Source of the DNA: Actinomycetota bacterium
GTDB taxonomy: Bacteria > Actinomycetota > Actinomycetes > Mycobacteriales > SCTD01
DNA length: 37,616 nucleotides
Assembly (NCBI GenBank): GCA_033851845.1
Contig: JAWWOH010000077.1
Location: forward strand, 1-37,616
Direction of reading: 5' to 3'
A program made the translations under genes and the position numbers. Position 1 is the stretch's first letter. The number at the start of each line of letters is the position of its first letter. Below the pieces are notes generated by a model. The model worked only from the letters and a program-made list of their open reading frames with translations, ran no database searches and had not been told where the DNA came from. Positions 2,378 through 20,816 of the stretch are shown here, one piece after another.

Positions 2378-3252
2378 GCACCTTCCCAGGGGGGTTCGTC
2401 CCGGTGGCACCGCCGGCGGACGGGCTTCGGCTCGCGTTCGTCGCGGCCCGCCGTCGTCGCAATCGAAAGGCAGGCGCCACCGGCGCCGCCGGCCTGCTCG
2501 CCGCGGTGGCGCTGCTCGCCTCGACGGGGGGTGCGGGTCAGCCGACCCTGATGCAGGAGCCGCTGCCTCCGTCGTCGTCGACCGGTCTGGGCGTCCTGCC
2601 GGGAGCCGACCCGACGGCTGCGCCCGGCCGAACCGCCCCGCCGGCAGCCGCGTCGTCGCTCGCCGTTGTCTCCACGCGGCGCGCGCAGGTCGCAGATCCG
2701 CAGGCCCACGACACTGTGCGCTCGGACCTCACCTCGGCTGGCACGTCGTCCCGCAACGGCGTCAGCGCGCAAGGAACGAAGCCGGTGTCCGGCCCGATGA
2801 CCCGCGGGTCCAGCGTCCTCTACACAAATGGTGACCTGATGTGTCCCGCGCGCAAGCAGCAGGAGGGGCAGCGCGGTCTGTGCACGGACATCTACGCAAG
2901 CCAGAACCCCAGTACCGGGGACACGACCATCACGGCTGAGATCTGCAACGTCGGGACGGCCACCGAGGTCCTGAGCTACGAGACTGCTCGCGAGCTGGAC
3001 CTGAGCGTGCGGCGGTCGGGCATCGAGGTGTGGCGGTGGTCCATCGGACGGCACTTCGCCGCTACCCCGCACCAGCTCGCCATCGGAACCCAGGCGTGCA
3101 TCAACTGGTCGACGACCTGGGCGCAGGTCGACTCGCACGGTGGACGGGTCCAGGCCGGCGGCTACGACGTCGTTGCCGACTTCGACGCCGCCGAGGTGGC
3201 GGCAGCGGACCGGCACCCGTCGTACCCGATCACCATCTCGCAGCAACCGTAG
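2374..3252 (+). CDS. single-pass membrane protein co-translated with the ECF sigma; candidate non-canonical anti-sigma factor
   Basis: 292 aa. A short cytoplasmic N-terminus (~25 aa, Arg-rich) is followed by one predicted transmembrane helix (GLLAAVALLAS) and an extracytoplasmic Pro/Ser/Ala-rich linker. The C-terminal domain carries 4 Cys. It is translationally coupled to the sigma gene, the usual position for an anti-sigma. No HxxxCxxC zinc anti-sigma motif is present. Confidence 0.55.
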   Translation: MSTFPGGFVPVAPPADGLRLAFVAARRRRNRKAGATGAAGLLAAVALLASTGGAGQPTLMQEPLPPSSSTGLGVLPGADPTAAPGRTAPPAAASSLAVVSTRRAQVADPQAHDTVRSDLTSAGTSSRNGVSAQGTKPVSGPMTRGSSVLYTNGDLMCPARKQQEGQRGLCTDIYASQNPSTGDTTITAEICNVGTATEVLSYETARELDLSVRRSGIEVWRWSIGRHFAATPHQLAIGTQACINWSTTWAQVDSHGGRVQAGGYDVVADFDAAEVAAADRHPSYPITISQQP

Positions 3253-3264
3253 GATCGGGCTCTC

Positions 3265-3337
3265 GCCGGGTTAGCTCAGTTGGCAGAGCACCGCTCTTGT
3301 AAAGCGGATGTCGTCGGTTCGATCCCGACACCCGGCT
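3265..3337 (+). tRNA. tRNA-Thr (anticodon UGU)
   Basis: Cloverleaf folded by hand. Acceptor GCCGGGT/ACCCGGC; D-arm GCTC-AGTTGGCA-GAGC; anticodon stem CCGCT/AGCGG with loop CTTGTAA (anticodon TGT); T-arm GTCGG-TTCGATC-CCGAC; discriminator T. CCA is not encoded. The antisense ORF shows the typical tRNA-shadow peptide. Confidence 0.9.
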
Positions 3338-3355
3338 CTGCCTCAAATGTATTGG

Positions 3356-3448
3356 GTCGGCTGAAGCTTGACAGACAAGCTTCGGCTGACCCTTTACACG
3401 GTTTCGGCTGATGGTTGACACGGCCTTCGGTTGATTCTTGACACTCCC
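3356..3448 (+). repeat. four tandem imperfect ~22-bp repeats (TTCGGCTGA-N3-5-TTGACA-CGG) between the tRNA and the IS remnant
   Basis: Units at 3356-3380, 3381-3401, 3402-3425 and 3426-3448. Each contains TCGG(C/T)TGA and a TTGACA/TTTACA hexamer. An embedded palindrome gaagcttg-N5-caagcttc lies at 3362-3382. Confidence 0.5.
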
Positions 3449-3453
3449 TCAGC

Positions 3454-3979
3454 ATGAGGGAGTTGAGCGTGTCGGAGCAGCGGTATCAGGCGATCCTCGC
3501 GGTGATCAGCGATGGCCGGACGGTGAAGGAGGTCGCGGCCGAATGGTCGGTGAGTAGGCAGACGTTGCATACCTGGCTGGCGCGCTATGAGGCCGGCGGT
3601 CTGGAGGGGCTGGCGGACCGGTCGCATCGGCCGAGACTCGTGTCCGCATCAGATGCCGGCGCAGGTCGAGGCGACGGTGCTGGAGATGCGCCGCGCGCAT
3701 GGCTACTGGGGTCCGCATCGGTTGATGGTGGAACTAGCCCGCAAGGGCGTGACGCCGGCGGTGTCGGAGTCGGCGGTCTATCGCTGTCTGGTGCGGGCCG
3801 GGGTGATCGAGCCGGCCCGTCGGCTGCGTCGCGAGGACGCATGGCGGCGGTGGGAGCGGGGCCGGCCGCTGGAGCTGTGGCAGATGGATGTGGTCGGTGG
3901 GTTCCTGCTCGCCGACGGCACGTCGGTCAAGGCGCTGACCGGGGCGCGGCCTTGGCGACGGACTTGTCTGTGCTGGTGA
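3454..3979 (+). pseudogene. IS481-family transposase remnant (frameshifted near 3630-3642, truncated after the first DDE residue)
   Basis: Frame 1 (3454-) gives MRELSVSEQRYQAILAVISDGRTVKEVAAEWSVSRQTLHTWLARYEAGGLEGLADRSHRP, the IS481 N-terminal helix-turn-helix. Frame 2 (3587-3979) continues SCPHQMPAQVEATVLEMRRAHGYWGPHRLMVELARKGV...ELWQMDVVGG..LADGT, the start of the DDE/rve domain. It then stops at 3977-3979 with most of the catalytic domain missing. Confidence 0.75.
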
Positions 3980-4185
3980 CTGCGAGCGCGTCGAGCACAG
4001 CGCCGGTCTGCGGCAGCTTCACCCGCCACGCGCTTTCGAGAATCGACAGAAGCCCGATGTCTCCGGCTGCCGTGCCGGCCCAGACTGGAACGGCCTGCGG
4101 CCCGCGTAGTTCGAGAACGGCGCTGAGCAATCTGACCCATTCTGTGTCAGACGCGACGCGGACCGAAGGCTGGCAGGGTGTGGGT

Positions 4186-5052
4186 TCAGGTACCTGTTAG
4201 GGAGTGCCAGAGCGCCCGCGTTGGCCGCTGCTCGAGGTAGTTGGGAAGGGTGCAGGCGGCGATCCGGAACGACGGTAGCTTCACGTCTACGGCCACCACG
4301 TCGACGCCGGGGGGCCGCTGCTGTGCAACGAGGTCGGGGACGATGCCGACGCCGCAGCCCAGTGAAGCCAGGGCTAGTACCGCTTCATGTCCGTGCGCCT
4401 CCGCGGCGACTGTGGGCCGTACCCGCAACCGCCGGAACCACAGATCGACCAGAGTGCGGCTCAGGCCGGTCTCTGGCAGCACGAACGGGACGCTGGACCA
4501 GGCCGGCGACACCGAGGTCGGCAATGTCAGACCACTGGCGCTCGACACCACCAGCACCATGTCGGTGGAGGTGATCACGTGGGCCAGCAGGTCTCGGGGC
4601 GTGCGCGCTGGCAGTGCAGCGATGGTCACGTCGACACTACCGTCCCTCAGTCGTTCTAGGGCTTCCGCGGCGTACCCCGTCTCGATGGCCAGGTGCACCG
4701 ACGGGTGGGTCGCCCGGAACGTGGCCAACAAGGACGGCACGATCGTCTGGCTCGCCGTCACCGTGCAGAACAGCGTCAAGGTTCCGGAGACGATCTCCTC
4801 AGGCTCCGTGGGGCCGAAACGCTGCCACTCGGTCAGGACGCGATGCGTGGTGTCGAGGAACCGGACACCGTCCGGCGTGAGCCCGACCGTGCGCCGGTCC
4901 CGATCAAACAGACGCACGCCGGTCTCCGCCTCCAGACGCGAGATGGTGCGGCTCAGCGTCGAGGGCGTCACATGACATTCCGCTGCCGTACGCCCGAAGT
5001 GGAGCGTCGCCGCCAAGTGCTGGAAGAGCTCGAGCTGATCAAGAGAAGTCAT
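4186..5052 (-). CDS. LysR-family transcriptional regulator, IlvY-like by context (divergent from a class II ketol-acid reductoisomerase)
   Basis: 288 aa. N-terminal helix-turn-helix (LELFQHLAATLHFGRTAAECHVTPSTLSRTISRLEAETGVRLFDR) plus a LysR substrate-binding domain. It is transcribed divergently from the reductoisomerase gene with a 71-bp gap, the E. coli ilvY-ilvC arrangement. Confidence 0.85.
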   Translation of the reverse strand: MTSLDQLELFQHLAATLHFGRTAAECHVTPSTLSRTISRLEAETGVRLFDRDRRTVGLTPDGVRFLDTTHRVLTEWQRFGPTEPEEIVSGTLTLFCTVTASQTIVPSLLATFRATHPSVHLAIETGYAAEALERLRDGSVDVTIAALPARTPRDLLAHVITSTDMVLVVSSASGLTLPTSVSPAWSSVPFVLPETGLSRTLVDLWFRRLRVRPTVAAEAHGHEAVLALASLGCGVGIVPDLVAQQRPPGVDVVAVDVKLPSFRIAACTLPNYLEQRPTRALWHSLTGT

Positions 5053-5075
5053 GCACAGAGTGCATCACAGTGATC
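5052..5075. promoter_or_regulatory. two abutting palindromes (TGCACAGAGTGCA and ATCACAGTGAT) in the LysR/reductoisomerase divergent intergenic region; candidate LysR-type operator
   Basis: Read directly from the sequence at 5052-5064 and 5064-5074. They lie in a locally AT-richer 71-bp intergenic region. Confidence 0.35.
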
Positions 5076-5123
5076 CCCATGTTTCACTGGACGCATTACG
5101 ACATCTCGGGCTTTCCTTCAGCT

Positions 5124-6596
5124 ATGACTACTTTCTGTTCTCACATCTTCCCCGTGGAGCAGGTCGAGCTGGCCGGCACCGTCGAATCTGTCCTGGTCGG
5201 CGGGCGACACCTCCGATCCTTGATTCCTCAGGCTTTTCAAGGCGTCGATGAGATTGGCGTCATCGGCTGGGGATCGCAGGCGCGTGCACAGGCGGCCAAC
5301 CTGCGCGACTCTCTTGTCGGTACCAGTACCCGCGTCGTCGTCGGCCTTCAGCAGGGCTCACCTTCTGCCTCCGATGCGCGCGAGTGCGGCTTCACCGAGG
5401 AGGACGGGACCCTCGGCGAGATGTACGAGGTCATCGCGCGTTCGGACCTGGTACTGCTGCTCATCTCCGACGCCGCGCAGGCGACCGTGTACCCGCAGGT
5501 GTTCGCGGCCCTGCAACCCGGCGCGACGCTCGGCTTGTCCCACGGCTTCCTGCTCGGTTACCTCCACGCGATCGGGGTCGACGTGCCGAGCGATATCAAC
5601 GTGATCGGCGTCTGCCCGAAGGGGATGGGACCGTCGGTCCGGCGGCTCTACGAGCAGGGCGACGGCGGTGCCGGCATCAACTGCAGCTTCGCGGTCGCGC
5701 AGGACATTGACGGCTGGGCCACCGATCTCGCTCTCGCGTGGGCCGTCGGCATCGGAGCTCCCTGTACCTTCCGCACGACCCTCGAGCAGGAGTACCGCTC
5801 GGACGTGTTCGGCGAGCGAGGTGTGCTGCTCGGTGGGCTGCACGGCCTGGTCGAGAGCCTCTACCGGTTGCGCGCGGACACGGGTATCCCGGCCGAGTTG
5901 GCCTTCCGCAGCAGCTGCGAGACCCTCACCGGGCCGATCCGGCAGGCGATCTCCCGCGACGGTCTCAAGGGGCTGTACGGCAGCCTTTCCGTTGCGGAGC
6001 AGTCGGCCTTCGGGTCGGCGTACAACGCTTCGTACGGACCGCTGTACGGGCTGCTCGCCGAGATCTATGAGGAGGTCGACTCAGGTCGCGAGATCGCCTC
6101 TGTCGTCGCCGCTGGCGCGCGCCTGAACGACCACCCGATGCCGCAGGTCGAGGGCACGCCGATGTGGGAGGTCGCTGCGCGCGTCCGAGCTGCTCGCACC
6201 GACGACCCGGGACCCATCGACCCGGTCGCCGCCGGACTGTTCGCGGCGATGATGATGGCTCAGGCCGACCTGCTTCGCAGCAAGGGCCACGTCTGGTCCG
6301 AGATCGCGAACGAGTCGGTCATCGAGGCCGTAGACAGCTTGATCCCCTACATGCATGCTCGCGGCGTCGCCCACATGGTCGACAACTGCTCCGTCACCGC
6401 GAGGCTCGGGGCCCGTCGTTGGGGCCCGGTGTTCGAAGCCACTTTGAGCCGCGCCGTGCTTCCGCGGATCGGTGGCCATTCTGCCGGCGCACCAGAAGGG
6501 TTCATCGGCCATCCGCTGCACGACGTTCTCAGCACTCTCGGCCGATTCCGACCTTCGATTGACATCGCGTTGATCCCCGAAGCAGCGCCGGCCTGA
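5124..6596 (+). CDS. ilvC: ketol-acid reductoisomerase, class II (long form, ~490 aa, E. coli IlvC-type)
   Basis: Alignable by eye to E. coli IlvC throughout: N-terminal FCSHIFPVEQVELAG versus FNTLNLRQQLAQLG; Rossmann motif VIGWGSQARAQAANLRDS versus VGCGAQGLNQGLNMRDSG; LGLSHGF versus LGYSHGF. Its duplicated C-terminal knotted domain gives ~490 aa, against ~340 for class I. The ORF opens at GTG 5070. I chose ATG 5124 by N-terminal alignment to E. coli IlvC. Confidence 0.8.
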   Translation: MTTFCSHIFPVEQVELAGTVESVLVGGRHLRSLIPQAFQGVDEIGVIGWGSQARAQAANLRDSLVGTSTRVVVGLQQGSPSASDARECGFTEEDGTLGEMYEVIARSDLVLLLISDAAQATVYPQVFAALQPGATLGLSHGFLLGYLHAIGVDVPSDINVIGVCPKGMGPSVRRLYEQGDGGAGINCSFAVAQDIDGWATDLALAWAVGIGAPCTFRTTLEQEYRSDVFGERGVLLGGLHGLVESLYRLRADTGIPAELAFRSSCETLTGPIRQAISRDGLKGLYGSLSVAEQSAFGSAYNASYGPLYGLLAEIYEEVDSGREIASVVAAGARLNDHPMPQVEGTPMWEVAARVRAARTDDPGPIDPVAAGLFAAMMMAQADLLRSKGHVWSEIANESVIEAVDSLIPYMHARGVAHMVDNCSVTARLGARRWGPVFEATLSRAVLPRIGGHSAGAPEGFIGHPLHDVLSTLGRFRPSIDIALIPEAAPA

Positions 6597-6619
6597 CCGG
6601 CGAGGAAGACTAGATCCGT

Positions 6620-7831
6620 ATGACGGTCTCGGCGGCGGTGGAGCGTGCGGTCGCTGCCGTCACGGACCGCGAAAGCGACGTCCAAGCCTGGGCACGCCTC
6701 GACATCGAGCGGGCAGGGCAAGAGGCGATCGAGGCGGATCGGGCCTCGTCTCGTGGAGCACTGAGTGGCCTGGTCCTGGCTGTCAAAGACAACATCGACA
6801 GGGCGGGCCTCGCGACGGGTTGCGGGTCGCAGATCCCCACCGCGCAGGCCGCGAAGACCGATGCCTGGGTCGTTGATCGGCTGCGAAGCGCAGGTGCCGT
6901 GTGCCTAGGCAAGACCGTGTCCACCGAGTTCGCGTTGTTCTTCCCAGGACCGACTCGCAACCCTTGGCGGCTGACCCACACACCTGGAGGATCCTCGAGC
7001 GGGTCCGCCGCGGCAATCGCCGCGGGTATGGCCGACATCGCACTCGGCACCCAGACGGGCGGCTCGGTCATCCGGCCCGCAAGCTTCTGCGGCGTGTGGG
7101 GTTTCAAACCGACCTTCGGTGCCGTCCCGCGCGAGGGCATCCGCGTCATCGCGCCCTCTCTGGACACCGTAGGGTGGTTCGGACGCTCAGCAGCAGACCT
7201 CGAAGCCGTCCGTCGCGTCCTGGGCGACCAGACACCGCCAGCGCCGATCGACACGCCACCGCGGTTCGCGCTCCTCCGCACCGAGTACTGGACCGAGGCG
7301 GACCGGAGCGCTCGAACAGCCGTGACAACGGCAGCTGACCGAGCACGGACCGCCGGAGCACGCGTCACCGAACGCGACCCGGCAGTGCTGGCCGGCCTGG
7401 CACAAGGCCAACCGCTCATCCAGTGCTACGAGGCCGCTCGCTCCCTCCGATTCGAGCGGGAACACCACGCCAACAGGCTGTCAGCTTCGCTCAAGAACTA
7501 CCTCGCCCAGGGGGATGCCGTCAGCTGTGAGCAGCACGAAGCGGTGCTGGCGTCGGCCGCCCGTGTCCGCACAGCGCAGGACGAGGTCTTCGACGACGGC
7601 GACGTCCTACTGACCTTGGCGGCCGCAGGGGAGGCACCAAAAGGGCTGACGTCGACCGGCGATCCGCTCCACTCCCAGCTCTGGACCTTGCTCGGCTGGC
7701 CGACAGTCGCCGTACCCGGACTGAAGGGATCCACCGGATTGCCCATCGCCGTGCAGCTGATCGGCCGCGCCGGGTTCGACGCAGAGGTCATCGCCGCCGC
7801 GGCGTGGCTCGCGGAGGCGATGCGAGCATGA
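6620..7831 (+). CDS. amidase signature (AS) family amidase
   Basis: 403 aa with the GGSSSGSAAAIAAGMADIALGTQTGGSVIRPASFCG signature (Ser-cisSer-Lys family), KDNIDRAGLATGCGS. Confidence 0.85.
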   Translation: MTVSAAVERAVAAVTDRESDVQAWARLDIERAGQEAIEADRASSRGALSGLVLAVKDNIDRAGLATGCGSQIPTAQAAKTDAWVVDRLRSAGAVCLGKTVSTEFALFFPGPTRNPWRLTHTPGGSSSGSAAAIAAGMADIALGTQTGGSVIRPASFCGVWGFKPTFGAVPREGIRVIAPSLDTVGWFGRSAADLEAVRRVLGDQTPPAPIDTPPRFALLRTEYWTEADRSARTAVTTAADRARTAGARVTERDPAVLAGLAQGQPLIQCYEAARSLRFEREHHANRLSASLKNYLAQGDAVSCEQHEAVLASAARVRTAQDEVFDDGDVLLTLAAAGEAPKGLTSTGDPLHSQLWTLLGWPTVAVPGLKGSTGLPIAVQLIGRAGFDAEVIAAAAWLAEAMRA

Positions 7832-9165
7832 GCGTCGTTCCCGAGACGCTACGCGAAGGCACCCGATGGCCTGAACCTCGCCTACCAGGTCATCGGAGGA
7901 GGTCCCGTCGACCTCGTCTTCATCTCGGAATGGACGACGCACATCGAGGCGCAGTGGGACTACCCGCCGCTGGCACGCTTCCTGGACCGGCTCGCCAGCT
8001 TCAGCCGGCTGATCATGTTCGACAAGCGCGGCATGGGCCTTTCCGACCCCTTACCCCTTGACCACGTCCCGACGCTGGAACGCGGCGTCGAGGACATCTC
8101 CGTTGTGCTGGACGAGATCGAGTCCTCCCAGGCCTCCCTGTTCGCGACCGCCGAGCGGGTCCGATGAGCATGGTCTTCGCCGCGACACACCCGAGCAGGG
8201 TGCGCGCCCTCGTACTCGCCGATACCTTCGCACGGCTCGCTGCCGCACCGGACTACCCGCAAGGCGTCTCCGTCGAGCAGCAGCGCGCCTACCTGGCCAC
8301 CGTCGAGCGCGACTGGGGAACAGGGGGCGTAGTGGAGCACTTCGCGCCCAGCCGCCAGGACGACACCGCCTTTCGGACCTGGCTCGGACGCTACCGACGG
8401 ATGTCGGCCAGCCCCGGCATGGGCCGTCGGATGCAGGAGCGCTTCTACGACACTGACGTCCGCGAGGTCCTCCCCATCATTGCGGTCCCAACCCTGGTGC
8501 TGCACCACGTCGGGAACGCGTTCGTCCCAGCCAGCGCCGGGCGCTACGTGGCAGAAGCTATCCCCGGCTCCCAGTTCGTCGAGCTCGACGGAGACGAGCA
8601 CCTGTTCTACGCGGGACCGACCGACCAGATGCTTGACGAAGTGGAGCAGTTCCTCATCGGAAGCCGGCAGCCGCACCGCACCAACCGAGTCCTCGCCACG
8701 GTGCTGTTCACCGACATCGTCGACTCAACGGGAACAGCAGGACGCGTTGGCGACGGTGCCTGGCGCGACCTCCTCGACAGCCACGACACCCACGCCCGTC
8801 GTCAGCTCGCGCGCTTCCGAGGCCGAGAGATCAGCAGCACAGGTGATGGTTTCCTCGCGACCTTCGACGCCCCGGCTCCCGCAATCCAAGCCGCCGCTGC
8901 CATTCGCGAAGGAGCCCGTCGACTCGGCCTCGACACCCGCGCCGGGGTACACGCCGGAGAGGTCGAACTACGCGCCACCGGCATCGGCGGCGTTGCCGTG
9001 CACCTCGCCCACCGCATCCTCAGCGCAGCATCCCCCGGCGAAGTCCTCGTGTCCTCAACCATCCGGGATCTCGTGACCGGGTCCTCGCTGCGCTTCCTCA
9101 ACCGCGGCCACCAGACTCTCAAGGGCTTTGACGAGCCGTGGCACCTGTACGCCGTAGACCTGTAA
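7828..9165 (+). pseudogene. LipJ-like alpha/beta-hydrolase-fold/class III adenylyl (nucleotidyl) cyclase fusion, disrupted by two compensating frameshifts
   Basis: ATG 7828 (frame 1) gives MSVVPET.... The alpha/beta-hydrolase segment RYAKAPDGLNLAYQVIGGGPVDLVFISEW...FDKRGMGLSDP is in frame 2 (about 7844-8167, stop 8165-8167). Frame 1 resumes at 8164 with MSMVFAATHPSRVRALVLAD... and the cyclase domain (VLFTDIVDSTG...GDGFLATFD...HAGEVE...GGVAVHLAHRI). This is the architecture of mycobacterial Rv1900c/LipJ. Frame 2 has no start codon, and frame 1 hits a stop at 8059-8061. Confidence 0.55.
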
Positions 9166-9217
9166 GAGCCCGCTCCGTTCGCTCTACCCTGCGCCACCCG
9201 GGTTCCTTCCCAAGTCA

Positions 9218-9249
9218 CAGCTGCTCGCCGCGCCGCCGGCGAGTAGCTG
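9218..9249. terminator. hairpin (13-bp stem with 1 mismatch, 6-nt loop) downstream of the cyclase pseudogene
   Basis: cagctgctcgccg at 9218-9230 pairs with cggcgagtagctg at 9237-9249, read from the sequence. Confidence 0.25.
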
Positions 9250-9543
9250 CGGTCGATGGATCACTTACAGGGCAACCTGTTGGTGCCGGCCGCTAGCGGA
9301 GTCAGGCAGGGCGGGAGAACGCCGCCATCCAACATCCCTGCCGTTAGCTCCGTGCCGTGCCCACCGGCGAACCGTTGTTTGCACGGCCCGCACATGGCTT
9401 CTGAAGCAACCTGGATTGGCGGCCACGTTGGCATCCAAAATGACGGACCGCTGCGGTCTTTCGTGACCTCCTGTGGACCATGTTGTGTTCAGGCGCACGC
9501 TCAGTGAACACCGACGGTCACCGGCGGACGTCTGCCCAGCCAA

Positions 9544-9588
9544 CTTATAGAGCGGATGTAGTCGGTTCGATCCCGACACCCGGTTCTG
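9544..9588 (+). repeat. partial direct copy of the tRNA-Thr 3' half (anticodon loop to discriminator); putative attR-type islet junction
   Basis: cttatagagcggatgtagtcggttcgatcccgacacccggttctg versus tRNA 3296-3340 cttgtaaagcggatgtcgtcggttcgatcccgacacccggctctg: 41/45 identical, same orientation. The copy has no 5' half of the tRNA. Confidence 0.7.
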
Positions 9589-9633
9589 TCTTGTGGTTGG
9601 GTCGCTGACCCGCGCCTCGACGGCGGACATCGG

Positions 9634-10932
9634 TCAGGCTTTGTCGCCGCGAAGATCCAGCACGTGTTGGGCTTTGCCTTCGGAGCGCGGGAGCGTGCCG
9701 GGTGCGCCGACCTCGCACGTCACGGTGACGCCGACGTTGTCCTTGATCAGCGCAACGAGCTGGTTGCTCAGTAACGCAAGCCCTTCTGCGCTGACGTCTG
9801 CTCGTGCCTCTGCTCGCACTGTCATCTCATCGAGCCGGCCGGGCCTGGTCAGCACGACTTGGTAGTGCGGGGCCAGTCCTTCGACGCGCAGCAGCTGCTC
9901 CTCGATCTGCGTCGGGAACACGTTGACACCGCGAAGGATCAGCATGTCGTCGGAGCGGCCGCTGATGCGCTCGATCCGCCGCATGGTCCGTGCGGTGCCC
10001 GGAAGCAGGCGGGTCAGATCCCGGGTGCGATAGCGGACGAGAGGCATCGCCTCCTTGGACAGGGTGGTGAAGACGAGCTCGCCGTACTCGCCCTCCGGCA
10101 GCACCTCACCGGTCGCCGGATCGATGATCTCGGGGTAGAAATGGTCCTCCCAGACGTGCAGGCCGTCCTTGGTCTCGACGCACTCGTTCGCGACCCCTGG
10201 GCCCATCACCTCGGACAGTCCGTAGATGTCGACGGCGTCGAGGCCGGCCCGGTCCTGCACCTCCGAGCGCATGTCCTCGGTCCACGGTTCGGCGCCGAAG
10301 ATGCCGATCCGCAGAGAAGACTTTCGCGGGTCGAGCCCCTGTCGCTCGAACTCGTCGAGCAACGCGAGCATGTACGACGGCGTGACCATGATGATGTCGG
10401 GCCGCAGGTCGGTGATGAGCCGGACCTGCCGCTCCGTCTGCCCGCCCGAGACCGGAAGCACGGTGCAGCCGAGCCGTTCGGCGCCGTAGTGCGCTCCGAG
10501 GCCGCCGGTGAAAAGGCCGTAGCCGTAGGCGATGTGCACCGTCATGCCCGGTCGGCCGCCGGCGGCGTAGATGCTGCGGGCAACGACGTCCGACCACGTG
10601 TCGAGGTCGCGAGCCGTGTATCCCACGACGGTCGGTTGTCCAGTGGTGCCGCTGCTGGCGTGGACCCGGCGGATGTCCGTCTGAGGCACCGCGAACAGGC
10701 CATAGGGGTAGTTGTCGCGCAGGTCTGCCTTGGTGGTGAACGGGAACTGGCTCAGCTCCGACAGGCTGGTCAGGTCGTCCGGCTTGATGCCCGCCTTGTC
10801 GAAGGCCTGGCGGTAGTGCGGAACGTTGTCGTATGCGTGCGCGAGCGACCAGCGCATCCGCTGCAGCTGAAGCGACTGCAGCTCGTCCGGCGCAGCGACC
10901 TCGACCGGGTCGTAGACATCGCTTGATGGCAC
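9634..10932 (-). CDS. phenylacetate-CoA ligase (PaaK) family adenylate-forming enzyme
   Basis: 432 aa with a GTG start. P-loop SSGTTGQPTVVGYT; overall PaaK/F390-synthetase-family collinearity (YGLSE, RYRTRD). Confidence 0.8.
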   Translation of the reverse strand: MPSSDVYDPVEVAAPDELQSLQLQRMRWSLAHAYDNVPHYRQAFDKAGIKPDDLTSLSELSQFPFTTKADLRDNYPYGLFAVPQTDIRRVHASSGTTGQPTVVGYTARDLDTWSDVVARSIYAAGGRPGMTVHIAYGYGLFTGGLGAHYGAERLGCTVLPVSGGQTERQVRLITDLRPDIIMVTPSYMLALLDEFERQGLDPRKSSLRIGIFGAEPWTEDMRSEVQDRAGLDAVDIYGLSEVMGPGVANECVETKDGLHVWEDHFYPEIIDPATGEVLPEGEYGELVFTTLSKEAMPLVRYRTRDLTRLLPGTARTMRRIERISGRSDDMLILRGVNVFPTQIEEQLLRVEGLAPHYQVVLTRPGRLDEMTVRAEARADVSAEGLALLSNQLVALIKDNVGVTVTCEVGAPGTLPRSEGKAQHVLDLRGDKA

Positions 10933-10963
10933 TGCCAGCTCTCCTCTGCTTTCGTGGTCGCGG

Positions 10964-11647
10964 CTAGACGCCTGAGGCCCGCCGGGGGAGCGCGAACTCC
11001 TCGACGAGGATCCGATGCGTGCTGGTCAGGTGCTCACGCATTCCGCGAGCCGCCTCCTGCTCGTTGCCGGCTGCGATCGCCCCTGCGATCTGCTCATGGG
11101 CGGCGATCTCGTCGGCGGAGCTGATGTGGCTCTCCAGACTCGGCAGTAGGAAGTGCAGCCGCGTCACCTCGTCCACGAGGTTGGCGATGACCTTCGTGGC
11201 GCGAGCATTGCCGGACATCTCCGCGATGCGCACGTGGAAGTCCGCAGCGCCTTGCAGTGCCGCGGCCAAGTCGTTCTTCGCGCGACGCTGCCGTCGTACG
11301 GTCTCGTTCATCCGTGCGTCACTGGCGGCTACCCGGGCGGCTGCCTCGGCGGCGAACCCCGGCTCGAGCATCTCTCGTAGCTGGAACACGTCGCGTAGGT
11401 CGTCAAGGCCGAGCGGCCGGACGAGGTAGCCGCGACGCGGGAGCACGAGCACCCACCCGTCTTGCACCAGTAGCCGCAGAGCCTCCCGTACCGGCGTCTT
11501 GGATACGCCGAACCGGGCCGCGAGCTCGGGCTCGAGGATCGTCGCACCCGGGAGCAGGCGGGCGGTCAGGATCTCTTCGCGCAGCCGGGCATGGACGCGC
11601 TCAGTGAGCGGCAGCCCGGGCGGACCTGTGTTGACCGCGCTACCCAC
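10964..11647 (-). CDS. GntR-family transcriptional regulator (FadR/FCD subfamily)
   Basis: 227 aa. N-terminal winged helix-turn-helix (EPELAARFGVSKTPVREALRLLVQDGWVLVLPRRGYLV) plus a C-terminal all-helical FCD domain. It is divergent from the downstream catabolic operon. Confidence 0.85.
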   Translation of the reverse strand: MGSAVNTGPPGLPLTERVHARLREEILTARLLPGATILEPELAARFGVSKTPVREALRLLVQDGWVLVLPRRGYLVRPLGLDDLRDVFQLREMLEPGFAAEAAARVAASDARMNETVRRQRRAKNDLAAALQGAADFHVRIAEMSGNARATKVIANLVDEVTRLHFLLPSLESHISSADEIAAHEQIAGAIAAGNEQEAARGMREHLTSTHRILVEEFALPRRASGV

Positions 11648-11650
11648 TGG

Positions 11651-11671
11651 TGATATCTCTCAGATATCTCA
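11651..11671. promoter_or_regulatory. AT-rich intergenic stretch with duplicated GATATCTC (two GATATC palindromes 5 bp apart); candidate GntR operator or divergent promoter
   Basis: tGATATCTCtcaGATATCTCa at 11651-11671 sits in a 39-bp gap between the GntR gene and the first operon gene. Local GC is far below the window average. Confidence 0.3.
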
Positions 11672-11686
11672 CGAACGAGAGAGTAG

Positions 11687-12493
11687 ATGGTCCTCGAACT
11701 CAGCGCCAGCATCCCTGCGCTTTACGGCAGTCGTCCGTTCGCGGCGGCCTGCGCAGCGGCCGCCGCCGACGGATTCGCTTGCGTCGAGCTCTGGGCGCCG
11801 CCAGAACGTCCGGACTGGCCCGCGGCGCTGACGGCACTGGACGCACGCGGCCTGTCGCTGACCTCGGTTAATGCTCCGGCAGGCGCACCCCCTGCCTTCG
11901 GCACCGCCGCCGCGCCGACGCTCGCTGAGAGCTGGCGAGCGGAGGTCATGGACGCGCTCGAGTTCGCGCGGCTGGCCGGCGCCACCGCGATCAACGTCCT
12001 CGCTGGCGCTCGGATGCCGGGACACACGCGGGCCGACCAGCTGGCGTGCCTGCGGGAGAACCTCAAGTGGCTGTTGGACCTCCTGGACGACAGCGATCCG
12101 GTGCTGCTCCTCGAGCCGCTCAACACTGTTGACCGGTGCTCCCCGTTACTGGGTCGAATCGATGACGCGATCGCGGTGCTCGACCAGCTCGGATCGGATC
12201 GGCTGCGGCTGCTCTTCGACGCCTATCACGTGCACCAGGAGGAGCCGGACCTGCTGCCGGCCTTCGACCGCGCGTTGCCCTACATCGGTCATGTGCAGGT
12301 CGCTGACTTCCCCGGGCGGGCACAGCCCGGCACCGGCACGCTGGCGTGGCCTTCCCTGATTGCCGAGATCGTGAAGTCGGGCTACCAGGGCCGCATCGGC
12401 TGTGAGTTCGTGCCCACCTGCCCGGACGCAGTCGCCCTGGCTCGCGCGTATCTGACTGCGTTGCAGGTCATCGAAGCAGGGGGTGCGACATGA
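11687..12493 (+). CDS. xylose-isomerase-like TIM-barrel protein (hydroxypyruvate isomerase / sugar-phosphate isomerase-epimerase family)
   Basis: 268 aa. The pattern is typical of the Hyi/AP-endonuclease-2 TIM barrel (ACVELW, LLEPLN, FDAYHV, GHVQVAD, GCEF). Its stop overlaps the next start (ATGA at 12490-12493). Confidence 0.75.
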   Translation: MVLELSASIPALYGSRPFAAACAAAAADGFACVELWAPPERPDWPAALTALDARGLSLTSVNAPAGAPPAFGTAAAPTLAESWRAEVMDALEFARLAGATAINVLAGARMPGHTRADQLACLRENLKWLLDLLDDSDPVLLLEPLNTVDRCSPLLGRIDDAIAVLDQLGSDRLRLLFDAYHVHQEEPDLLPAFDRALPYIGHVQVADFPGRAQPGTGTLAWPSLIAEIVKSGYQGRIGCEFVPTCPDAVALARAYLTALQVIEAGGAT

Positions 12494-14208
12494 CCGCCGA
12501 GCTGCCGAGCAGCGCGGCGCTCGACGGTGATGCCGGTTTCGCGGCCCGGACCTTCCTGCGCTCCGGCGGCCTCACGGCGGAGCAGGTTCGTCGCCGGCCG
12601 ATCATCGGCATCTGCTCGAGCTGGAGCGAGCTGACACCGTGCAACCTGCCGTTGAAGGCGATTGCCGAGCACGTTCGGTACGGCGTCGAACAGGCCGGTG
12701 GCACCGCCCTGGTGTTCCCGACCATCTCGCTGTCTGAAGCGTTGGTACGGCCTACGACGATGTTCTTGCGGAACCTGATGTCCATCGACGTCGAGGAGAT
12801 GATCACCGCCAGCCCGATCGACGGCGTCGTCCTGCTGAACGGCTGTGACAAGACCGTCGCGGCGCAGCTGATGGGCGCGATCAGCGCCGACAAGCCGGCG
12901 GTCTCGCTCGGTGCGGGCATCCGTCCGCGCGGAGAGTGGTGCGGGCGGGCACTCACGATCGACGACTCCTGGCGGCTCATGGAGGAGCGTCGTGCAGGCC
13001 TGCTTGACGACGAGGCGTGGGCAGACGTCGAGGGTCGGGTGAGTCCGGGACCGGGTGTGTGCAACGTGCTCGGCACCGCGGTCACCCTCGCGATGATCGC
13101 CGAAGTGCTCGCCTTCGCGATGCCCGGATCGAGCCTGCAGGATGCCGGTTCCGACGAGCAGGCCGAGCTCGCGCGCCAGACCGGGGCCGCCGTCGTACGT
13201 GCGGTCAGTGAGGGCGTCCGGCCGAGCAGCCTGGTGACGCGGGACGCGCTCCTCGACGCATGGCGCGTCGTCTGCGCACTCGGTGGGTCGACCAACGCAG
13301 CCATCCATCTGCTTGCGCTGGCCGGGCGGGCCGGTGTGGTCCTGACGCTCGACGACCTCGCCGCCGCCGGCCGCGCGACACCGACCCTCGGCCGGATCAA
13401 GCCCAACGGCCCCTTTGACCTCGACGACCTTCGCGCTGAGGGCGGCGTCGCGGCAACGTTGGCCGCGCTCTCGCCCCAGGTGGCTCTGGGCCGGGCCACG
13501 GCGGACGGACGGGCCTGGCGCGAGGTCGTGGCTGCGCTGCCAACCTGCCCGTCTCGAGCGCTCGCGTCGTCAGCGGCTCCGCAAGCGCCGTCGGCCGCGA
13601 TCGCCGTGCTGCACGGAAGCCTGGCCCCGGCTGGTGCCGTCATCAAGCGCAGCGCCGCCTCGCCGGGACTGCTGCGTCACACCGGGCCGGCCGTCGTGTT
13701 CGACGGCGTCGATGACATGCATGACCGCATCGATGATGACAACCTCGGTCTGGACGAGTCCTGCGTGCTGGTGTTGCGCAACTGCGGCCCGGTCGGTGGC
13801 CCGGGCATGCCGGAGGCCGGCGCCATCCCGATCCCGGTCCGGTTGTGGGCTCAGGGTGTGCGCGACATGGTGCGGATCTCGGACGCCCGGATGAGCGGAA
13901 CGGCTGCCGGCACGATCGTCCTGCACATCGCCCCGGAAGCAGCAGTCGGCGGGCCGTTGTCGCTCGTGCATGACGGCGACCTGATCTCGCTCGACGTCGA
14001 TGCCGGGCGACTCGACCTGCTCGTCACCGACGAGGAGCTGCAGCGTCGTACCGAGCGACGAGCCAGGGGCGTTGGCGACGTTCCCGAGGAACGCGGCTAC
14101 AGGTGGCTGTACCAGCGACATGTGATGCAGGCACCCGAGGGCTGCGACTTCGACTTCCTCCGCAGCACCGGACGTCAAGAGGCCCACAGCAGGGGAGGCG
14201 CGGCATGA
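12490..14208 (+). CDS. IlvD/EDD-family dehydratase (dihydroxy-acid / sugar-acid dehydratase)
   Basis: 572 aa. N-terminal IIGICSSWSELTPCN and CDKTVAAQLMG (the [Fe-S] Cys region), and the conserved C-terminal domain of the IlvD/EDD family. Confidence 0.85.
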   Translation: MTAELPSSAALDGDAGFAARTFLRSGGLTAEQVRRRPIIGICSSWSELTPCNLPLKAIAEHVRYGVEQAGGTALVFPTISLSEALVRPTTMFLRNLMSIDVEEMITASPIDGVVLLNGCDKTVAAQLMGAISADKPAVSLGAGIRPRGEWCGRALTIDDSWRLMEERRAGLLDDEAWADVEGRVSPGPGVCNVLGTAVTLAMIAEVLAFAMPGSSLQDAGSDEQAELARQTGAAVVRAVSEGVRPSSLVTRDALLDAWRVVCALGGSTNAAIHLLALAGRAGVVLTLDDLAAAGRATPTLGRIKPNGPFDLDDLRAEGGVAATLAALSPQVALGRATADGRAWREVVAALPTCPSRALASSAAPQAPSAAIAVLHGSLAPAGAVIKRSAASPGLLRHTGPAVVFDGVDDMHDRIDDDNLGLDESCVLVLRNCGPVGGPGMPEAGAIPIPVRLWAQGVRDMVRISDARMSGTAAGTIVLHIAPEAAVGGPLSLVHDGDLISLDVDAGRLDLLVTDEELQRRTERRARGVGDVPEERGYRWLYQRHVMQAPEGCDFDFLRSTGRQEAHSRGGAA

Positions 14209-15098
14209 GACTCGTCAGCTTCGGGTTACCCGGCGCGGAGCAGCCGGGGGTCCTCCTCGAGGACGAGGTCGTGCCGCTGGTCGGCTGGCTCGCCGACCTC
14301 GGACTGGACGGCGTGGGGATGAACGGCGTTCTCGGTCTGCTGCCGACGATGCGCTCAGAGGCCGAGAAGTACGTCGCTGCCGCGCGCACTCGGGTGCGCC
14401 TGGAAACCGTTCGGCTCGGACCGCCGGTCCCCAAGCCGCCGTCGCTGATCGTCATCGGTGGCAACTTCCACAGTCATGTCCAGGAGATGGCGGGCATGAA
14501 CGGCGGCAAGCCACCGCTGCAGCCGATCATCGTGCCCAAGCCGACGACCAACGTTGTCGGACCGCGCGACGACATCGTCAAGCCCGCGGTCACCGAAGAG
14601 CTCGACTACGAAGCCGAGATGGCTGTCGTCATCGGCAAAGCCGGGCACGGCATCCGACGAGAGACCGCCATGGAACACGTCGCCGGCTACATGAACATCC
14701 AGGACATGACGGCCCGCGATCTCATCCTGCCGGCCGGCGAGCCGTGGATGCACCTGCAGATGGGCCGCGCGAAAGGCTTCGACGGCTCCAGTCCCTGCGG
14801 GCCTTGGTTGCTGACCTCCGACGAGGTAGAGGACCCGCACGATCTCGAGATCCGGATGTGGGTGAACGACGAGCTGCGCCAGCACGGTTCGACGTCGGAC
14901 ATGGTCGTCGACATTCCCGGTCTGGTCGAGAGCGTGAGCGCAGTCTTCCGGATCCGTCCCGGCGATGTCCTGATCACCGGAACCCCAGCGGGCGTAGGCG
15001 CGAAGATGGAACCACCGCGGTTCCTGCAGCCTGGCGACCGCATCCGGATGGCGATCACGGGCCTCGGCGAGACCGCCAACACGATCATGGCCTCCTGA
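14205..15098 (+). CDS. fumarylacetoacetate hydrolase (FAH) family protein (2-keto-3-deoxy-acid hydratase/dehydratase-like)
   Basis: C-terminal FAH-fold motifs (DYEAEMAVVIGK, NIQDMTARD, GDVLITGTPAGVG). I chose start ATG 14205, which overlaps the IlvD-family stop (ATGA). An in-frame ORF extends upstream to 14103. Confidence 0.75.
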   Translation: MRLVSFGLPGAEQPGVLLEDEVVPLVGWLADLGLDGVGMNGVLGLLPTMRSEAEKYVAAARTRVRLETVRLGPPVPKPPSLIVIGGNFHSHVQEMAGMNGGKPPLQPIIVPKPTTNVVGPRDDIVKPAVTEELDYEAEMAVVIGKAGHGIRRETAMEHVAGYMNIQDMTARDLILPAGEPWMHLQMGRAKGFDGSSPCGPWLLTSDEVEDPHDLEIRMWVNDELRQHGSTSDMVVDIPGLVESVSAVFRIRPGDVLITGTPAGVGAKMEPPRFLQPGDRIRMAITGLGETANTIMAS

Positions 15099-15970
15099 TG
15101 GACGCAGCACGCATCGGGTTCATCGGACTCGGAGCCATGGGCGCGCGCATGGCCGCCCGGCTGCTCGACGTCGGGTTCGATCTGACCGTCCACAACCGCA
15201 CGAGAGCGCGCGAGACCGATCTCATCGGGCGGGGCGCGACGTCGGCGTCCTCGCCTGCGGAGCTCGCGACCAGGACGGACGTCGTTGTTGGTTGCCTGCT
15301 CGACGACGGCGCCATCGAGCAGGTCTACCGCGGTGACGACGGACTGGTCAGCGCAGCCCGCCGCGGCCAGGTCTTCATCGAGCACGCCACCTTCTCGCCG
15401 GCACTTGCCGGCGACATCGAGCGGGAGCTGGCCAAGCGCGACGCGGTGTTCCTCGACGCACCGGTCAGTGGTGGGCCGGAGGGCGCGGCGGCCGGCACGC
15501 TGGCAGTGATGGTCGGCGGCAACCAGCAGAGCCTTGCCGCGGTCGTGGAGGTCGTGCAGGCATATGCGTCGCGCGTCGTGCACATCGGACCGACCGGCGC
15601 GGGTCTCGAGCTCAAGCTCGTCAACCAGCTCCTCGTCAGCTGCCACGCCGCTGCCGCCGCAGAGGCGGCCGAGCTCATGCGCCGGATGGGCATGCCACTG
15701 GGCGTCGCCAGCGCAGTGCTCAACGCGAGCTGGGCGAACAGCGCGATGCTCAGCCGGATGTTCGACCGACGTCTGGCCGAAGAGAACACGCCATCAGAAG
15801 CGACTGTCGAGGGGCTCGCGACGCCGCAACGCCTGGTGCGCGAACTGCTCGCGGAGCACGACCTCGCGCCAGCTGTCTCGAACGCCGCCCTGGACGCGTT
15901 CGCGACCGCTCGCGCACGGGGGCGCGGCCGCCAGGATCTGACCGAGCTGCTGGAGGCGGCACAATGCTGA
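15098..15970 (+). CDS. NAD(P)-dependent 3-hydroxyisobutyrate dehydrogenase / 2-hydroxy-3-oxopropionate (tartronate semialdehyde) reductase family oxidoreductase
   Basis: 290 aa. N-terminal Rossmann IGFIGLGAMGARMAARL and the 6PGDH-type NAD-binding fold (GTLAVMVGG, LELKLVNQLL). Its start overlaps the FAH stop (TGATG). Confidence 0.8.
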   Translation: MDAARIGFIGLGAMGARMAARLLDVGFDLTVHNRTRARETDLIGRGATSASSPAELATRTDVVVGCLLDDGAIEQVYRGDDGLVSAARRGQVFIEHATFSPALAGDIERELAKRDAVFLDAPVSGGPEGAAAGTLAVMVGGNQQSLAAVVEVVQAYASRVVHIGPTGAGLELKLVNQLLVSCHAAAAAEAAELMRRMGMPLGVASAVLNASWANSAMLSRMFDRRLAEENTPSEATVEGLATPQRLVRELLAEHDLAPAVSNAALDAFATARARGRGRQDLTELLEAAQC

Positions 15971-17502
15971 GGACCCGTACGCCGATCGGCGCTGTCCTTC
16001 TCACCCTCGTCCTCACGGGATGTGGCAGCACGGTCCAGCCTGGGACGCAGACCGTCTCCGGCGGCCAGCCCGGGGGCACCTCGGGCTCGGGTTCCACCGG
16101 CGGGCTGGGGGCACCGACCTCGGGTTCGCAGGGACTCCCCGGCACGGGCGGAACTGGCGGCACTGCCACGGGGCCCGGTGCTGGCGGCACGACGACCGGT
16201 GCCGGCACGACCGGCGGCAGTACGACGGGCGGTGCGGCGAGCGGAACCGCGGGTGCCAACACGACCGGAACGTCGGGGCCGTCCTCGACGCAGCCGAAGA
16301 CCGGACCTTTGCAGCTCGGGGTGCTCGACGCGAAGTCGCCGGCAGCGGCAGCGAGCGCCACCGGGGCGAAGAGCCCGGCCGGCGTTGACCCCGCCGAGCT
16401 CACCCGCGCGTTCATCCACTACTACAACGCGCACGGCGGCCTGGCCGGCCGCAAGCTCGAGCCCATCGAGTACACGATTGACCCGACGTCGGCGTCGTAC
16501 GAGAACGACCTGTCGGCGGCTTGCGCGAAGTTCACCCAGGACAACCACGTGCGGCTCGTCGTGAGCCAGACCGGCAACATCTTCTCCGGCAACTACGAGG
16601 GTTGCCTTACCAAAGCGGGCGCCACCAACCTCGAGGTCGGCAACGGCGCTCCGGACGAGCGCTCGCTCAAGAGCTATCCGCGTCTCTATACGACCGGGTC
16701 GCCGACGGTCGACCGTCGGGTGACGGCGCAGCTGCGCGGTCTGGCGAAGACCGGCTTGCTCACCCGCACAACGAAGATCGGGGTCATCGTCGAGGCCTGC
16801 CCGGACAACACGCGCGCCTATGACAAGACCGTTGTGCCGGTTGCGCGATCGCTAGGGCTCACGCTTGAGCGCCGGGACGTGGACTGCGTCGCCGGGTTCA
16901 ACGATGCGGGAAACTTCTTCGCGCAGGTCGGATCAGCGGTATTGCCGTACAAGACCGCGGGGGTCTCGCGGGTCCTGTTCATGACGTCGTTCGAGGTGGC
17001 GGCCGTGCAGGCCTTCGAGAACCAGGCCCAGGCTCAGGCCTACACGCCGTCGTACGTCCTGAGCAGCATCGCGGCCACGCCGGTGCAAGCCAGCCAGTAC
17101 AGCGCGGATGCGCAGAAGCGCATGTTCGGTGTCGGCTGGATCCCCGTTCAGGACACCACCGGCATCCCACAGGGCCAAGCGGTCAAGCGCTGCTTCGAGA
17201 TCGCGAGCGCCGAGGGCCAGTCGATCGCTTCTCAGGGCGACTACGTCTTCCTCCTGCAGATCTGCGACCTGTTCGGCATCCTCGATGCGGCCCTGGTCAA
17301 CGCGAGCGGCAGCGATGACACAGCGGCATTCGCTGCGGGTCTCGGCGCCGCGTCGAAGTCGTTCCAGAGCACCGACATTCTCGGTGGTCGGCTGCGCCTC
17401 GGGGGCGACACCCACGACGCACCACCGGTGTTCGCGCCGTTCGGCTACGTGGGCTCGTGCTCGTGCTTCCGATACCTCGGCAAACCCGCGGCGCTGGCGT
17501 GA
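15964..17502 (+). CDS. lipoprotein: signal peptide + lipobox (LTGC), ~100-aa Gly/Thr/Ser-rich linker, type-I periplasmic-binding-protein-like domain (orphan substrate-binding protein)
   Basis: MLRTRTPIGAVLLTLVLTGC. A low-complexity GGT/SGT linker spans 16030-16330. The C-terminal ~400 aa resemble Leu/Ile/Val-binding-protein-type ABC substrate-binding proteins. The ATG overlaps the previous stop. No permease or ATPase genes are adjacent. Confidence 0.65.
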   Translation: MLRTRTPIGAVLLTLVLTGCGSTVQPGTQTVSGGQPGGTSGSGSTGGLGAPTSGSQGLPGTGGTGGTATGPGAGGTTTGAGTTGGSTTGGAASGTAGANTTGTSGPSSTQPKTGPLQLGVLDAKSPAAAASATGAKSPAGVDPAELTRAFIHYYNAHGGLAGRKLEPIEYTIDPTSASYENDLSAACAKFTQDNHVRLVVSQTGNIFSGNYEGCLTKAGATNLEVGNGAPDERSLKSYPRLYTTGSPTVDRRVTAQLRGLAKTGLLTRTTKIGVIVEACPDNTRAYDKTVVPVARSLGLTLERRDVDCVAGFNDAGNFFAQVGSAVLPYKTAGVSRVLFMTSFEVAAVQAFENQAQAQAYTPSYVLSSIAATPVQASQYSADAQKRMFGVGWIPVQDTTGIPQGQAVKRCFEIASAEGQSIASQGDYVFLLQICDLFGILDAALVNASGSDDTAAFAAGLGAASKSFQSTDILGGRLRLGGDTHDAPPVFAPFGYVGSCSCFRYLGKPAALA

Positions 17503-17513
17503 AGGAGCCCAGG

Positions 17514-20742: not shown

Positions 20743-20816
20743 CAATCTGCCTACGCGGTTCCTACGCCGAAGCACGAGACGGCCAGCATCGACAGCCCTG
20801 AACAAGACCTGAGCAC

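Follow-up and report, generated by a model that had tools for sequence, protein, structure and literature searches.

Why does the 3' half of a tRNA-Thr gene recur, in the same orientation and 6.2 kb downstream, in a contig from an uncultured soil-type actinobacterium, and what is the DNA between the two copies? The window analysed here is the whole stretch of 37,616 nt (contig JAWWOH010000077.1, forward strand), and the islet in question occupies positions 3339-9588, from the base after the tRNA-Thr(UGU) gene to the end of the displaced copy. We propose, with a probability of roughly 0.7, that this islet is the decayed remnant of a tyrosine-recombinase-type integrative element (like an actinomycete integrative and conjugative element (AICE), another integrative and conjugative element (ICE) or a prophage) that was inserted in the 3' part of the tRNA gene. 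The two copies of the tRNA 3' end would then be the cores of the attachment (att) sites attL and attR, and the features concerned are the following.

3265-3338, plus strand: tRNA-Thr(UGU) gene, anticodon TGT (ARAGORN; Rfam RF00005, 68.9 bits), the putative attL core being 3296-3340 (tRNA positions 32-76)
9417-9543, plus strand: putative element-side arm of attR, with homology to the DNA that directly precedes the distal tRNA fragments of loci L089 and L092, and to the partial arm that L091 has
9544-9588, plus strand: putative attR core, which repeats tRNA-Thr positions 32-76 away from the gene, in the same orientation as 3296-3340 and with 41/45 identity to it

A displaced copy of the tRNA-Thr 3' end

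ARAGORN and Rfam agreed on tRNA-Thr(TGT) as the sole tRNA of the window, and its sequence was identical, or differed by one D-loop base, in seven related loci. The first-pass annotation had reported the 3' half of this gene to be repeated at 9544-9588 with 41 matches in 45 positions, and the repeat proved to be real and well above chance. The window contains the 20-mer GGTTCGATCCCGACACCCGG exactly two times; the mean in shuffled sequences was 0.01, and none of 100 shuffles contained it two or more times. The distal copy begins with a break in the anticodon loop, there being no repeat of the gene's 5' half. The four mismatches of the attR core sit at tRNA positions 35, 38, 48 and 72, and one of these substitutions hits the base that is paired with G1 of the acceptor stem. 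Neither the tRNA 3' end nor the arm motifs described below were detected a third time anywhere in the window.

The putative attR arm recurs at tRNA-Thr genes of other genomes

We tested whether the DNA beside the distal copy is an element-borne att arm, using related loci for comparison. Six informative loci (L085, L086, L089, L090, L091 and L092; each from a metagenome or a metagenome-assembled genome (MAG)) were obtained via homologues of the anti-sigma protein encoded next to the tRNA. A further such homologue, P0002 (91%), is on a contig of only 1.3 kb. In L089, tRNA positions 32-74 recur as an exact copy of 43 bp, 9.5 kb downstream of the tRNA-Thr, and L092 has an exact 41-bp tRNA-Thr fragment, 247 bp after its tRNA-Thr. 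The fragments of the window, L089 and L092 all start at the same anticodon-loop position, and the window arm at 9417-9543 is homologous to the arms of L089, L092 and L091. In the last of these the arm is partial, the tandem repeat standing ~70 bp after the tRNA-Thr with no tRNA fragment.

The window arm contains a tandem 11-bp repeat, TTGGCGGCCAC GTTGGCATCC, at 9418-9436, which is ~109 bp away from the core, and, directly beside the core, the block GGTCACCGGCGGACGTCTGCCCAGCCAA at 9516-9543. In the window, L089 and L092 the tandem repeat GGCAGCCAMGTTGGCAGCC lies ~107-141 bp upstream of the fragment, and the core-adjacent block (~30 bp conserved) has the consensus GGTCAmCrrCGGACrTCyGCCCAGCCrAC. 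Among 95 loci, GGCAGCCAMGTTGGCAGCC was present only in L089, L091 and L092, the window carrying a version with two mismatches, and all of these occurrences are downstream of tRNA-Thr. Arm and core together were 89-90% identical over 71-91 bp between the window and its relatives, and local alignments outside the tRNA part exceeded those of shuffled sequences with z = 24 for window/L089 (128 bp), 12.6 for window/L092 and 13.3 for L089/L091. L089 and L091 also have exact 17- to 23-mers in common in their arm DNA, and an exact 17-mer in the tRNA-proximal flank. The adjoining, mostly coding sigma/anti-sigma/tRNA block is only 72-80% identical between these genomes, and the genes beyond the distal fragments are unlike in each, being PaaK in the window, and TctA and an S8 peptidase in the others.

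The anatomy of tyrosine-recombinase att sites is established for lambda, L5 and pSAM2-type att sites, and integrase arm-type sites usually lie about as far from the core as the tandem 11-bp repeat does here (~110 bp). The conserved arm has its tandem repeats at ~110 bp and adjoins a tRNA copy beginning in the anticodon loop, from which we infer an attP-derived attR of a tyrosine-recombinase element. That the arm and the breakpoint are shared by L089 and L092, and part of the arm by L091, although the genes alongside are only 72-77% identical to those of the window, indicates, at the level of sequence, a family of elements with tRNA-Thr specificity. The suggestion made at first pass, that the repeat reflects site-specific integration into the tRNA gene, was strengthened by the comparison, the same arm and the same anticodon-loop breakpoint being present at tRNA-Thr in other genomes. 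Since the attR core of the window has four substitutions and the copies in L089 and L092 are perfect, we would argue that the integration event in the window is the older one.

The two other fragment-bounded inserts were also inspected, and no integrase was found in either (9.5 kb in L089, 0.25 kb in L092). In L089 (11096-18742), the DNA bracketed by the tRNA-Thr and the fragment codes for a single protein of 2548 aa, in which cadherin, Big_9 and beta-helix domains occur, and also holds an IS3-type element with a frameshift. The 247-bp stretch of L092 (10966-11212) is a miniature att-flanked remnant, in which a CCCGG-type simple repeat (~5 units) occurs together with the tandem 11-bp arm repeat and with an inverted repeat, CTTGATCA...TGATCAAG. 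A structured RNA at the distal repeat region of the window was considered as well and ruled out, with Rfam matching the tRNA alone and a fold z-score of -0.5.

The main alternative holds that a single ancient integration took place in the common ancestor of the window, L089, L091 and L092 lineages and that the interior was later inserted, replaced or deleted, so that the present cargo was never borne by the integrating element. Several observations fit this history: L092 has only 247 bp between tRNA and fragment, the partial arm of L091 stands ~70 bp after its tRNA, the cargo is unrelated from genome to genome and includes no element backbone genes, both larger inserts contain insertion sequence (IS) elements, and the LysR-reductoisomerase gene pair of the window is found elsewhere out of this context. 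On the other hand, arms and fragments are ~89-90% alike against 72-77% for the mostly coding host DNA beside them, which would be unexpected for neutral, vertically inherited non-coding DNA. The fragments of L089 and L092 are still perfect, against four changes in that of the window, each of the three genomes has different DNA beyond attR, and L085, L086 and L090, which branch among these genomes, are without any trace of such an event. We regard this history as unlikely, though as the strongest of the alternatives.

Search for an integrase and other mobility genes

Domain searches detected no integrase or excisionase domain in any called open reading frame (ORF) of the window. In the junction gaps at 9150-9640 and 3930-4200, nine of the ten longest stop-to-stop pieces (54-122 aa) had no match, and the tenth had a single non-significant one (E = 0.3) that was unrelated to recombinases. 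These results agree with the first-pass annotation, which had noted the lack of both genes and had asked for remnants of them in the distal gap, where the pieces from 9150-9640 gave none that was significant. Nothing resembling replication or transfer proteins was found in the islet, the two non-coding gaps or the rest of the window, and no domain of the AICE modules for excision/integration, RepSA/RepAM replication or FtsK-like conjugative transfer was found in 3339-9588.

The arm was then used as a query for an intact relative. A blastn search of 9380-9600 against phage and plasmid collections gave no match, and patterns of the arm/core junction matched no viral contig. The same patterns had 0 matches in a metagenome contig collection, where even the window's own contig was not hit, so that these samples are evidently missing from it. 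Two short arm motifs had 7 and 21 matches in viral contigs, and none of these 28 showed homology beyond the motif; the seven matches to the 19-mer motif fall in apparently coding sequence. Because no intact integrase-bearing relative was found, the type of recombinase is deduced from att-site anatomy only.

An IS481-family remnant beside the tRNA

The tRNA-proximal end of the islet is occupied by two features.

3348-3944, plus strand: IS481-family insertion sequence of which the left 597 bp remain, with 89% identity to the complete copy of L124 (1371 bp, 2446-3816)
3945-4185, no strand: non-coding remnant between the truncated insertion sequence and the 3' end of the LysR gene, without homology to the complete insertion sequence beyond 3944 and without Pfam match in the stop-to-stop pieces tested

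Homology to the L124 copy begins exactly at 3347/3348, 9 bp after the tRNA-Thr, with a left inverted repeat that starts TGTAT. The segment 3338-3450, which had been described as a GC-poor junction of the islet, is accordingly the left end of this insertion sequence. The transposase pseudogene starts with an ATG at 3454 and has a +1 frameshift near 3637, so that positions 1-53 of the NF033577 profile are matched in one frame and positions 54-144 of 284 in another, where the match ends, with a score below the cut-off. Its 3' part is cut off after ...GCGCTGACCGGGG, the homology ends at 3944, and both the right end and the target-site duplication are missing. Judged from these features, 3348-3944 appears to be a remnant of an IS481-family member and not a functional one.

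Four TCGGYTGA-N3-TTKACA repeats at 3357-3443 (4 seen against 0.03 expected) lie inside the left end of the insertion sequence, where they coincide with a strong hairpin (z = -7.3). They were examined as integrase arm-type sites of the proximal arm and were ruled out, being part of the IS left end that is also present in the complete L124 copy, with an inverted copy at the right end of the latter. An attempt to sort the short trailers after tRNAs and tRNA fragments into 'native' and 'element' types was likewise dropped, the similarity between the window and L089 being explained by the IS end.

Copies of this insertion sequence were observed after tRNAs in other loci as well. In L124 the complete copy lies 7 nt after tRNA-Lys(CTT), and its 15-bp target duplication takes in the last 7 nt of the tRNA. 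Another copy follows immediately after the tRNA-Lys 3' end in L125 (~2883-3479), and L089 has a 26-nt remnant resembling the IS left inverted repeat (20323-20350), 10 nt after its tRNA-Thr fragment. This distribution suggests that the IS481-family element prefers the first few bases after tRNA 3' ends. The copies of the window (3944/3945) and of L125 (~3479) also lose homology to the L124 copy (~3041-3045) at the same nucleotide, after ...AAGGCGCTGACCGGGG. The tRNAs and organisms are different, the DNA beyond each break is unrelated and there is no target duplication; a chance coincidence has a probability of ~0.4%.

The proximity of this insertion sequence bears on whether the tRNA repeat derives from integration at all, or instead from chance, or from a partial duplication of the tRNA by the IS481-family element or by illegitimate recombination. 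The element does lie 9 bp from the tRNA, and its complete copy elsewhere has duplicated 15 bp that include the last 7 nt of a tRNA. However, chance is excluded by the shuffles, the IS target duplication measures 15 bp and not 45 bp, the arm has no similarity to the insertion sequence, and L089 and L092 show the same breakpoint with the same upstream arm, which L091 has in part. We consider an origin other than integration very improbable.

The cargo of the islet

The remaining genes of the islet are as follows.

4186-5052, minus strand: IlvY-like LysR-family regulator (Pfam HTH_1 and LysR_substrate; NCBIfam IlvY equivalog NF008722, 260.6 bits against a cut-off of 246)
5079-6596, plus strand: long-form (class II-like, 505 aa) ketol-acid reductoisomerase (KARI; Pfam KARI_N and two KARI_C stretches)
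6620-7831, plus strand: amidase-signature-family amidase (Pfam Amidase, E = 2.3e-69; all NCBIfam amidase models below cut-off)
7828-9165, plus strand: LipJ-like bifunctional lipase/adenylate-cyclase pseudogene (NF058673), split over reading frames

These profile matches agree with the gene content recognized at first pass, namely an IS481 wreck, an IlvY-like regulator, a long-form reductoisomerase, an amidase and a frame-split cyclase. The LysR regulator, which reaches the IlvY equivalog score, is divergent from the KARI gene. This arrangement resembles ilvY-ilvC of Escherichia coli, in which an IlvY-scoring LysR regulator is divergently transcribed from a long-form KARI, but the KARI of the window scores far under the enterobacterial class II model (PRK05225, 68 against 713 bits) and is also below the ilvC equivalog cut-off of TIGR00465 (205.7 against 226.15). 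KARI homologues of ~490 aa are widespread in Actinomycetota, Acidimicrobiales, Dormibacteraeota and others, the nearest being 76-79% identical. The LysR-KARI pair is conserved in L093-L095 (KARI 76% identical), where its neighbours are unrelated genes and both the amidase and the LipJ-like gene are lacking.

The LipJ-like gene matches NF058673 in two parts, 7832-8167 covering profile positions 11-110 (E = 5e-20) and 8164-9165 covering positions 117-449 (E = 7e-108), and its sole start codon, at 7828, is in a third reading frame, which fits two frameshifts. The frameshift near 8160 is certain and a second one near 7850 is probable. The same frame structure is present in contig L084, which was independently assembled from another sample and is identical to the window over 2500-13252, so that the frameshifts are not assembly noise. 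Upstream of this identical part, in the sigma-factor gene, these two assemblies of one population diverge: 1836-2500 of the window and 3-670 of L084 have 81 differences in ~660 bp before 10.7 kb of identity; this reflects either recombination or a strain mosaic, or else a chimeric contig end.

Third-position GC was 0.77-0.82 in the islet genes against 0.85-0.94 in the conserved flanking genes, a deviation of the kind that the first-pass annotation had proposed to look for, and the strain-specific block at 9.6-17 kb is also lowish in this respect. The GC-poor junctions that it had described are real as dips (0.61-0.63 against 0.70), but equal dips occur at other intergenic places in the window (for example 0.605 at 5001-5400 and 0.62 at 1001-1400), so that they do not single out the junctions. 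The further idea of a single accessory module did not hold up. Because the LysR-KARI pair is found elsewhere on its own and the LipJ-like gene is dead, the cargo is, as far as its sequence can tell, a mosaic and not a coherent module; the apparent accessory module is a mix of leftovers and no functional cassette that would be worth following for itself.

A hypervariable hotspot downstream of tRNA-Thr

The window belongs to JGI metagenome contig Ga0467060_0000296, of which L001 shows 8 kb more on the upstream side, and its nearest named relatives are MAGs labelled Frankiales, Frankiaceae or Actinomycetota. All six relatives have the sigma/anti-sigma pair followed by tRNA-Thr; the anti-sigma gene ends 12 bp before the tRNA. 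The full upstream run carD-ispD-ispF-EAL-cysS-rlmB-sigma was present in the four loci that reach far enough (L085, L089, L090 and L092), and Band7 is absent from L090 and L092. After the tRNA-Thr each of the six has different DNA, the homology to the window stopping at 3341-3343. Synteny returns at 21581 (SnoaL, OYE) in L085 and at 21590 in L086, and at ~25540 (MlaD/Mce4_CUP1, glutamate dehydrogenase, NAGPA) in L090 and L092, where, as in L085 and L086, the interval from tRNA-Thr to MlaD measures 3.2-8.2 kb. In the window 18-22 kb are thus strain-specific, of which the att-bounded 6.2 kb make up the first third. The different DNA after the tRNA and the late return of synteny mark the interval from tRNA-Thr to MlaD as a hypervariable hotspot in this lineage.

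The view of the 6.2-kb islet as a unit therefore stands in that it is att-bounded, but not in its setting, as conserved DNA does not resume behind it but only at 21581 or ~25540. A search for an empty site gave a similarly divided result: the islet genes are absent from all six relatives, and both the islet genes and the distal repeat from L085, L086 and L090, but there is no precise empty junction and the DNA downstream of the repeat is absent too. This downstream DNA forms one further feature.

9589-21580, no strand: continuation of the hotspot's strain-specific DNA beyond the att-bounded part (annotated with Pfam and NCBIfam; absent from L085, L086, L089, L090, L091 and L092)

It encodes PaaK, a GntR regulator, a sugar-phosphate-isomerase-like TIM barrel, an IlvD/arabinonate-dehydratase-like protein and an FAH-family hydrolase, followed by a 3-hydroxyisobutyrate-dehydrogenase-like enzyme, an S15 peptidase, an FAD aromatic hydroxylase and ApbE. 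The part at 9634-15970 has the look of a catabolic cluster, running from PaaK (which passes its equivalog cut-off), a GntR/FCD regulator and a xylose-isomerase-like TIM barrel through to the 3-hydroxyisobutyrate-dehydrogenase-like enzyme, and is absent from all six relatives. The next ~1.3 kb (15970-17320) have long ORFs on both strands without Pfam match and atypical codon-position GC (second 0.64, third 0.76), and are possibly a decayed gene or non-coding DNA within the variable region.

The extent of this strain-specific DNA, which reaches 21580, raises the question of whether 3339-21580 as a whole was built by successive integrations at tRNA-Thr, with 9544-9588 marking where a younger element on the proximal side meets an older one on the distal side, the attR of which has decayed beyond recognition. 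Accretion at attR sites is a documented route to such tandems (PMC5704250), and the genes at 9.6-17 kb are, like those of the islet, somewhat low in third-position GC. That neither the tRNA 3' end nor the arm motifs are found a third time in the window speaks against it, as does the distal boundary, where ApbE and SnoaL are only 3 bp apart and leave no room for an att site. Such a stepwise origin of the whole interval is, in our assessment, quite improbable.

A Band-7 protein search of genome contigs yielded 80 loci, none with the tRNA-Thr neighbourhood, and only the p80-Band7 pair was syntenic. In L070 from Nucisporomicrobium flavum (7307-11074), the p80-Band7 pair has a PaaK homologue (67% identical) at a distance of 1.2 kb, an order that echoes the window without the sigma/anti-sigma/tRNA/islet segment and is probably a coincidence.

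A proposed history of the islet

In the history that we favour for the decayed element, an attP site carrying a copy of tRNA positions ~32-76 would have recombined with the chromosomal tRNA-Thr, rebuilding an intact tRNA-Thr at the proximal end (attL) and displacing the 45-bp tRNA 3' fragment to the distal end (attR), where it is still preceded by ~125 bp of element-side arm. The genes for recombination, replication and transfer would later have been lost. The IS481-family insertion sequence would then have entered 9 bp after the tRNA-Thr and would itself have been truncated later; its insertion, with the truncation of the IS and of adjoining DNA, is a plausible route to the loss of the integrase-proximal end. 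What remains is a mosaic that is att-flanked, non-autonomous and like a cis-mobilizable element (CIME), with an ilvY-ilvC-like pair, an amidase and a LipJ-like pseudogene. By its gene content the islet appears unable to move by itself, and mobilization in trans seems unlikely because of the four mismatches in the attR core. The first-pass description of the islet as old and immobilized is in line with this loss of all mobility genes and with the four changes in the core.

Several points weigh against this history. None of the islet genes belongs to an integrative-element backbone, and the cargo may have come later. No proximal arm of the element type is visible in the window, since the insertion sequence begins 9 bp after the tRNA-Thr. 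None of the six relatives provides a clean empty site in which tRNA-Thr leads straight to the PaaK flank, and the nearest relatives without the islet are also without the downstream PaaK block. Finally, no intact relative with an integrase beside this attP was present in any collection searched. Taking these points together with the arm shared at tRNA-Thr, the sequences suggest that tRNA-Thr-specific integrative elements of one family have visited several lineages and are now decayed.

Relation to known elements and significance

CIMEs are decayed derivatives of ICEs or of integrative and mobilizable elements that were first described in streptococci. They are defined by the retention of attL and attR and the loss of the integration and transfer genes (PMC5704250). 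The islet likewise has an attL core within the tRNA and an attR core and arm that are kept, with four core mismatches, and lacks integration and transfer genes of its own. Flanking by attL and attR in the 3' end of the target gene, cargo unrelated to mobility and the recurrence of related att sites in other genomes are further points of likeness. It differs in that no cognate ICE, AICE or integrase has been identified, in the four mismatches of the attR core and in its uncultured Frankiales-like host, and the likeness is one of sequence.

AICEs use tRNA genes as integration sites, a Thr-tRNA gene in the case of pSE101, and remnants of AICEs exist (PMC2440964). The islet resembles AICEs (pSAM2, SLP1, pMEA300, pSE101) and their remnants (Sco3997, Sare1208) in being actinobacterial, in its site-specific integration in a tRNA gene and in its decay, but the AICE modules (tyrosine integrase/Xis, Rep, FtsK-like Tra, Kor, Nudix), some of which the published remnants keep, are all missing from it. 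With tRNA-linked islets and hotspots in general it shares the intact tRNA that forms one boundary, the 3' part of that tRNA directly repeated at the other boundary, lower third-position GC, IS debris and strain-variable content; it differs in having no integrase and in that only one third of the variable interval is att-bounded. The islet is therefore an ordinary feature of a well-known kind, and its added interest is modest, consisting of the shared arm signature and the behaviour of the neighbouring insertion sequence.

On a more speculative view, the tRNA-Thr inserts of 6.2, 9.5 and 0.25 kb would together form a family of cis-mobilizable cassettes that is still alive though integrase-less. 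Their arms, which are better conserved than the genes nearby, would be maintained by an integrase encoded elsewhere that is still exchanging the cargo. The 247-bp copy of L092 would be the empty 'miniature' form, and the IS481-family element may in addition specifically target the 7-10 bp after tRNA 3' ends. We think this picture unlikely.

For this uncultured actinobacterial lineage, our analysis points to an integration hotspot at tRNA-Thr and to att arms belonging to an element family of which no intact member has been seen so far. The arrangement of GGCAGCCAMGTTGGCAGCC, ~70-105 nt, GGTCAMCRRCGGACRTCYGCCCAGCCRAC and then tRNA-Thr positions 32-76 provides a sequence signature by which an active element may be found, and the integrase of such an element could serve as a site-specific integration tool for Frankiales-like actinomycetes.

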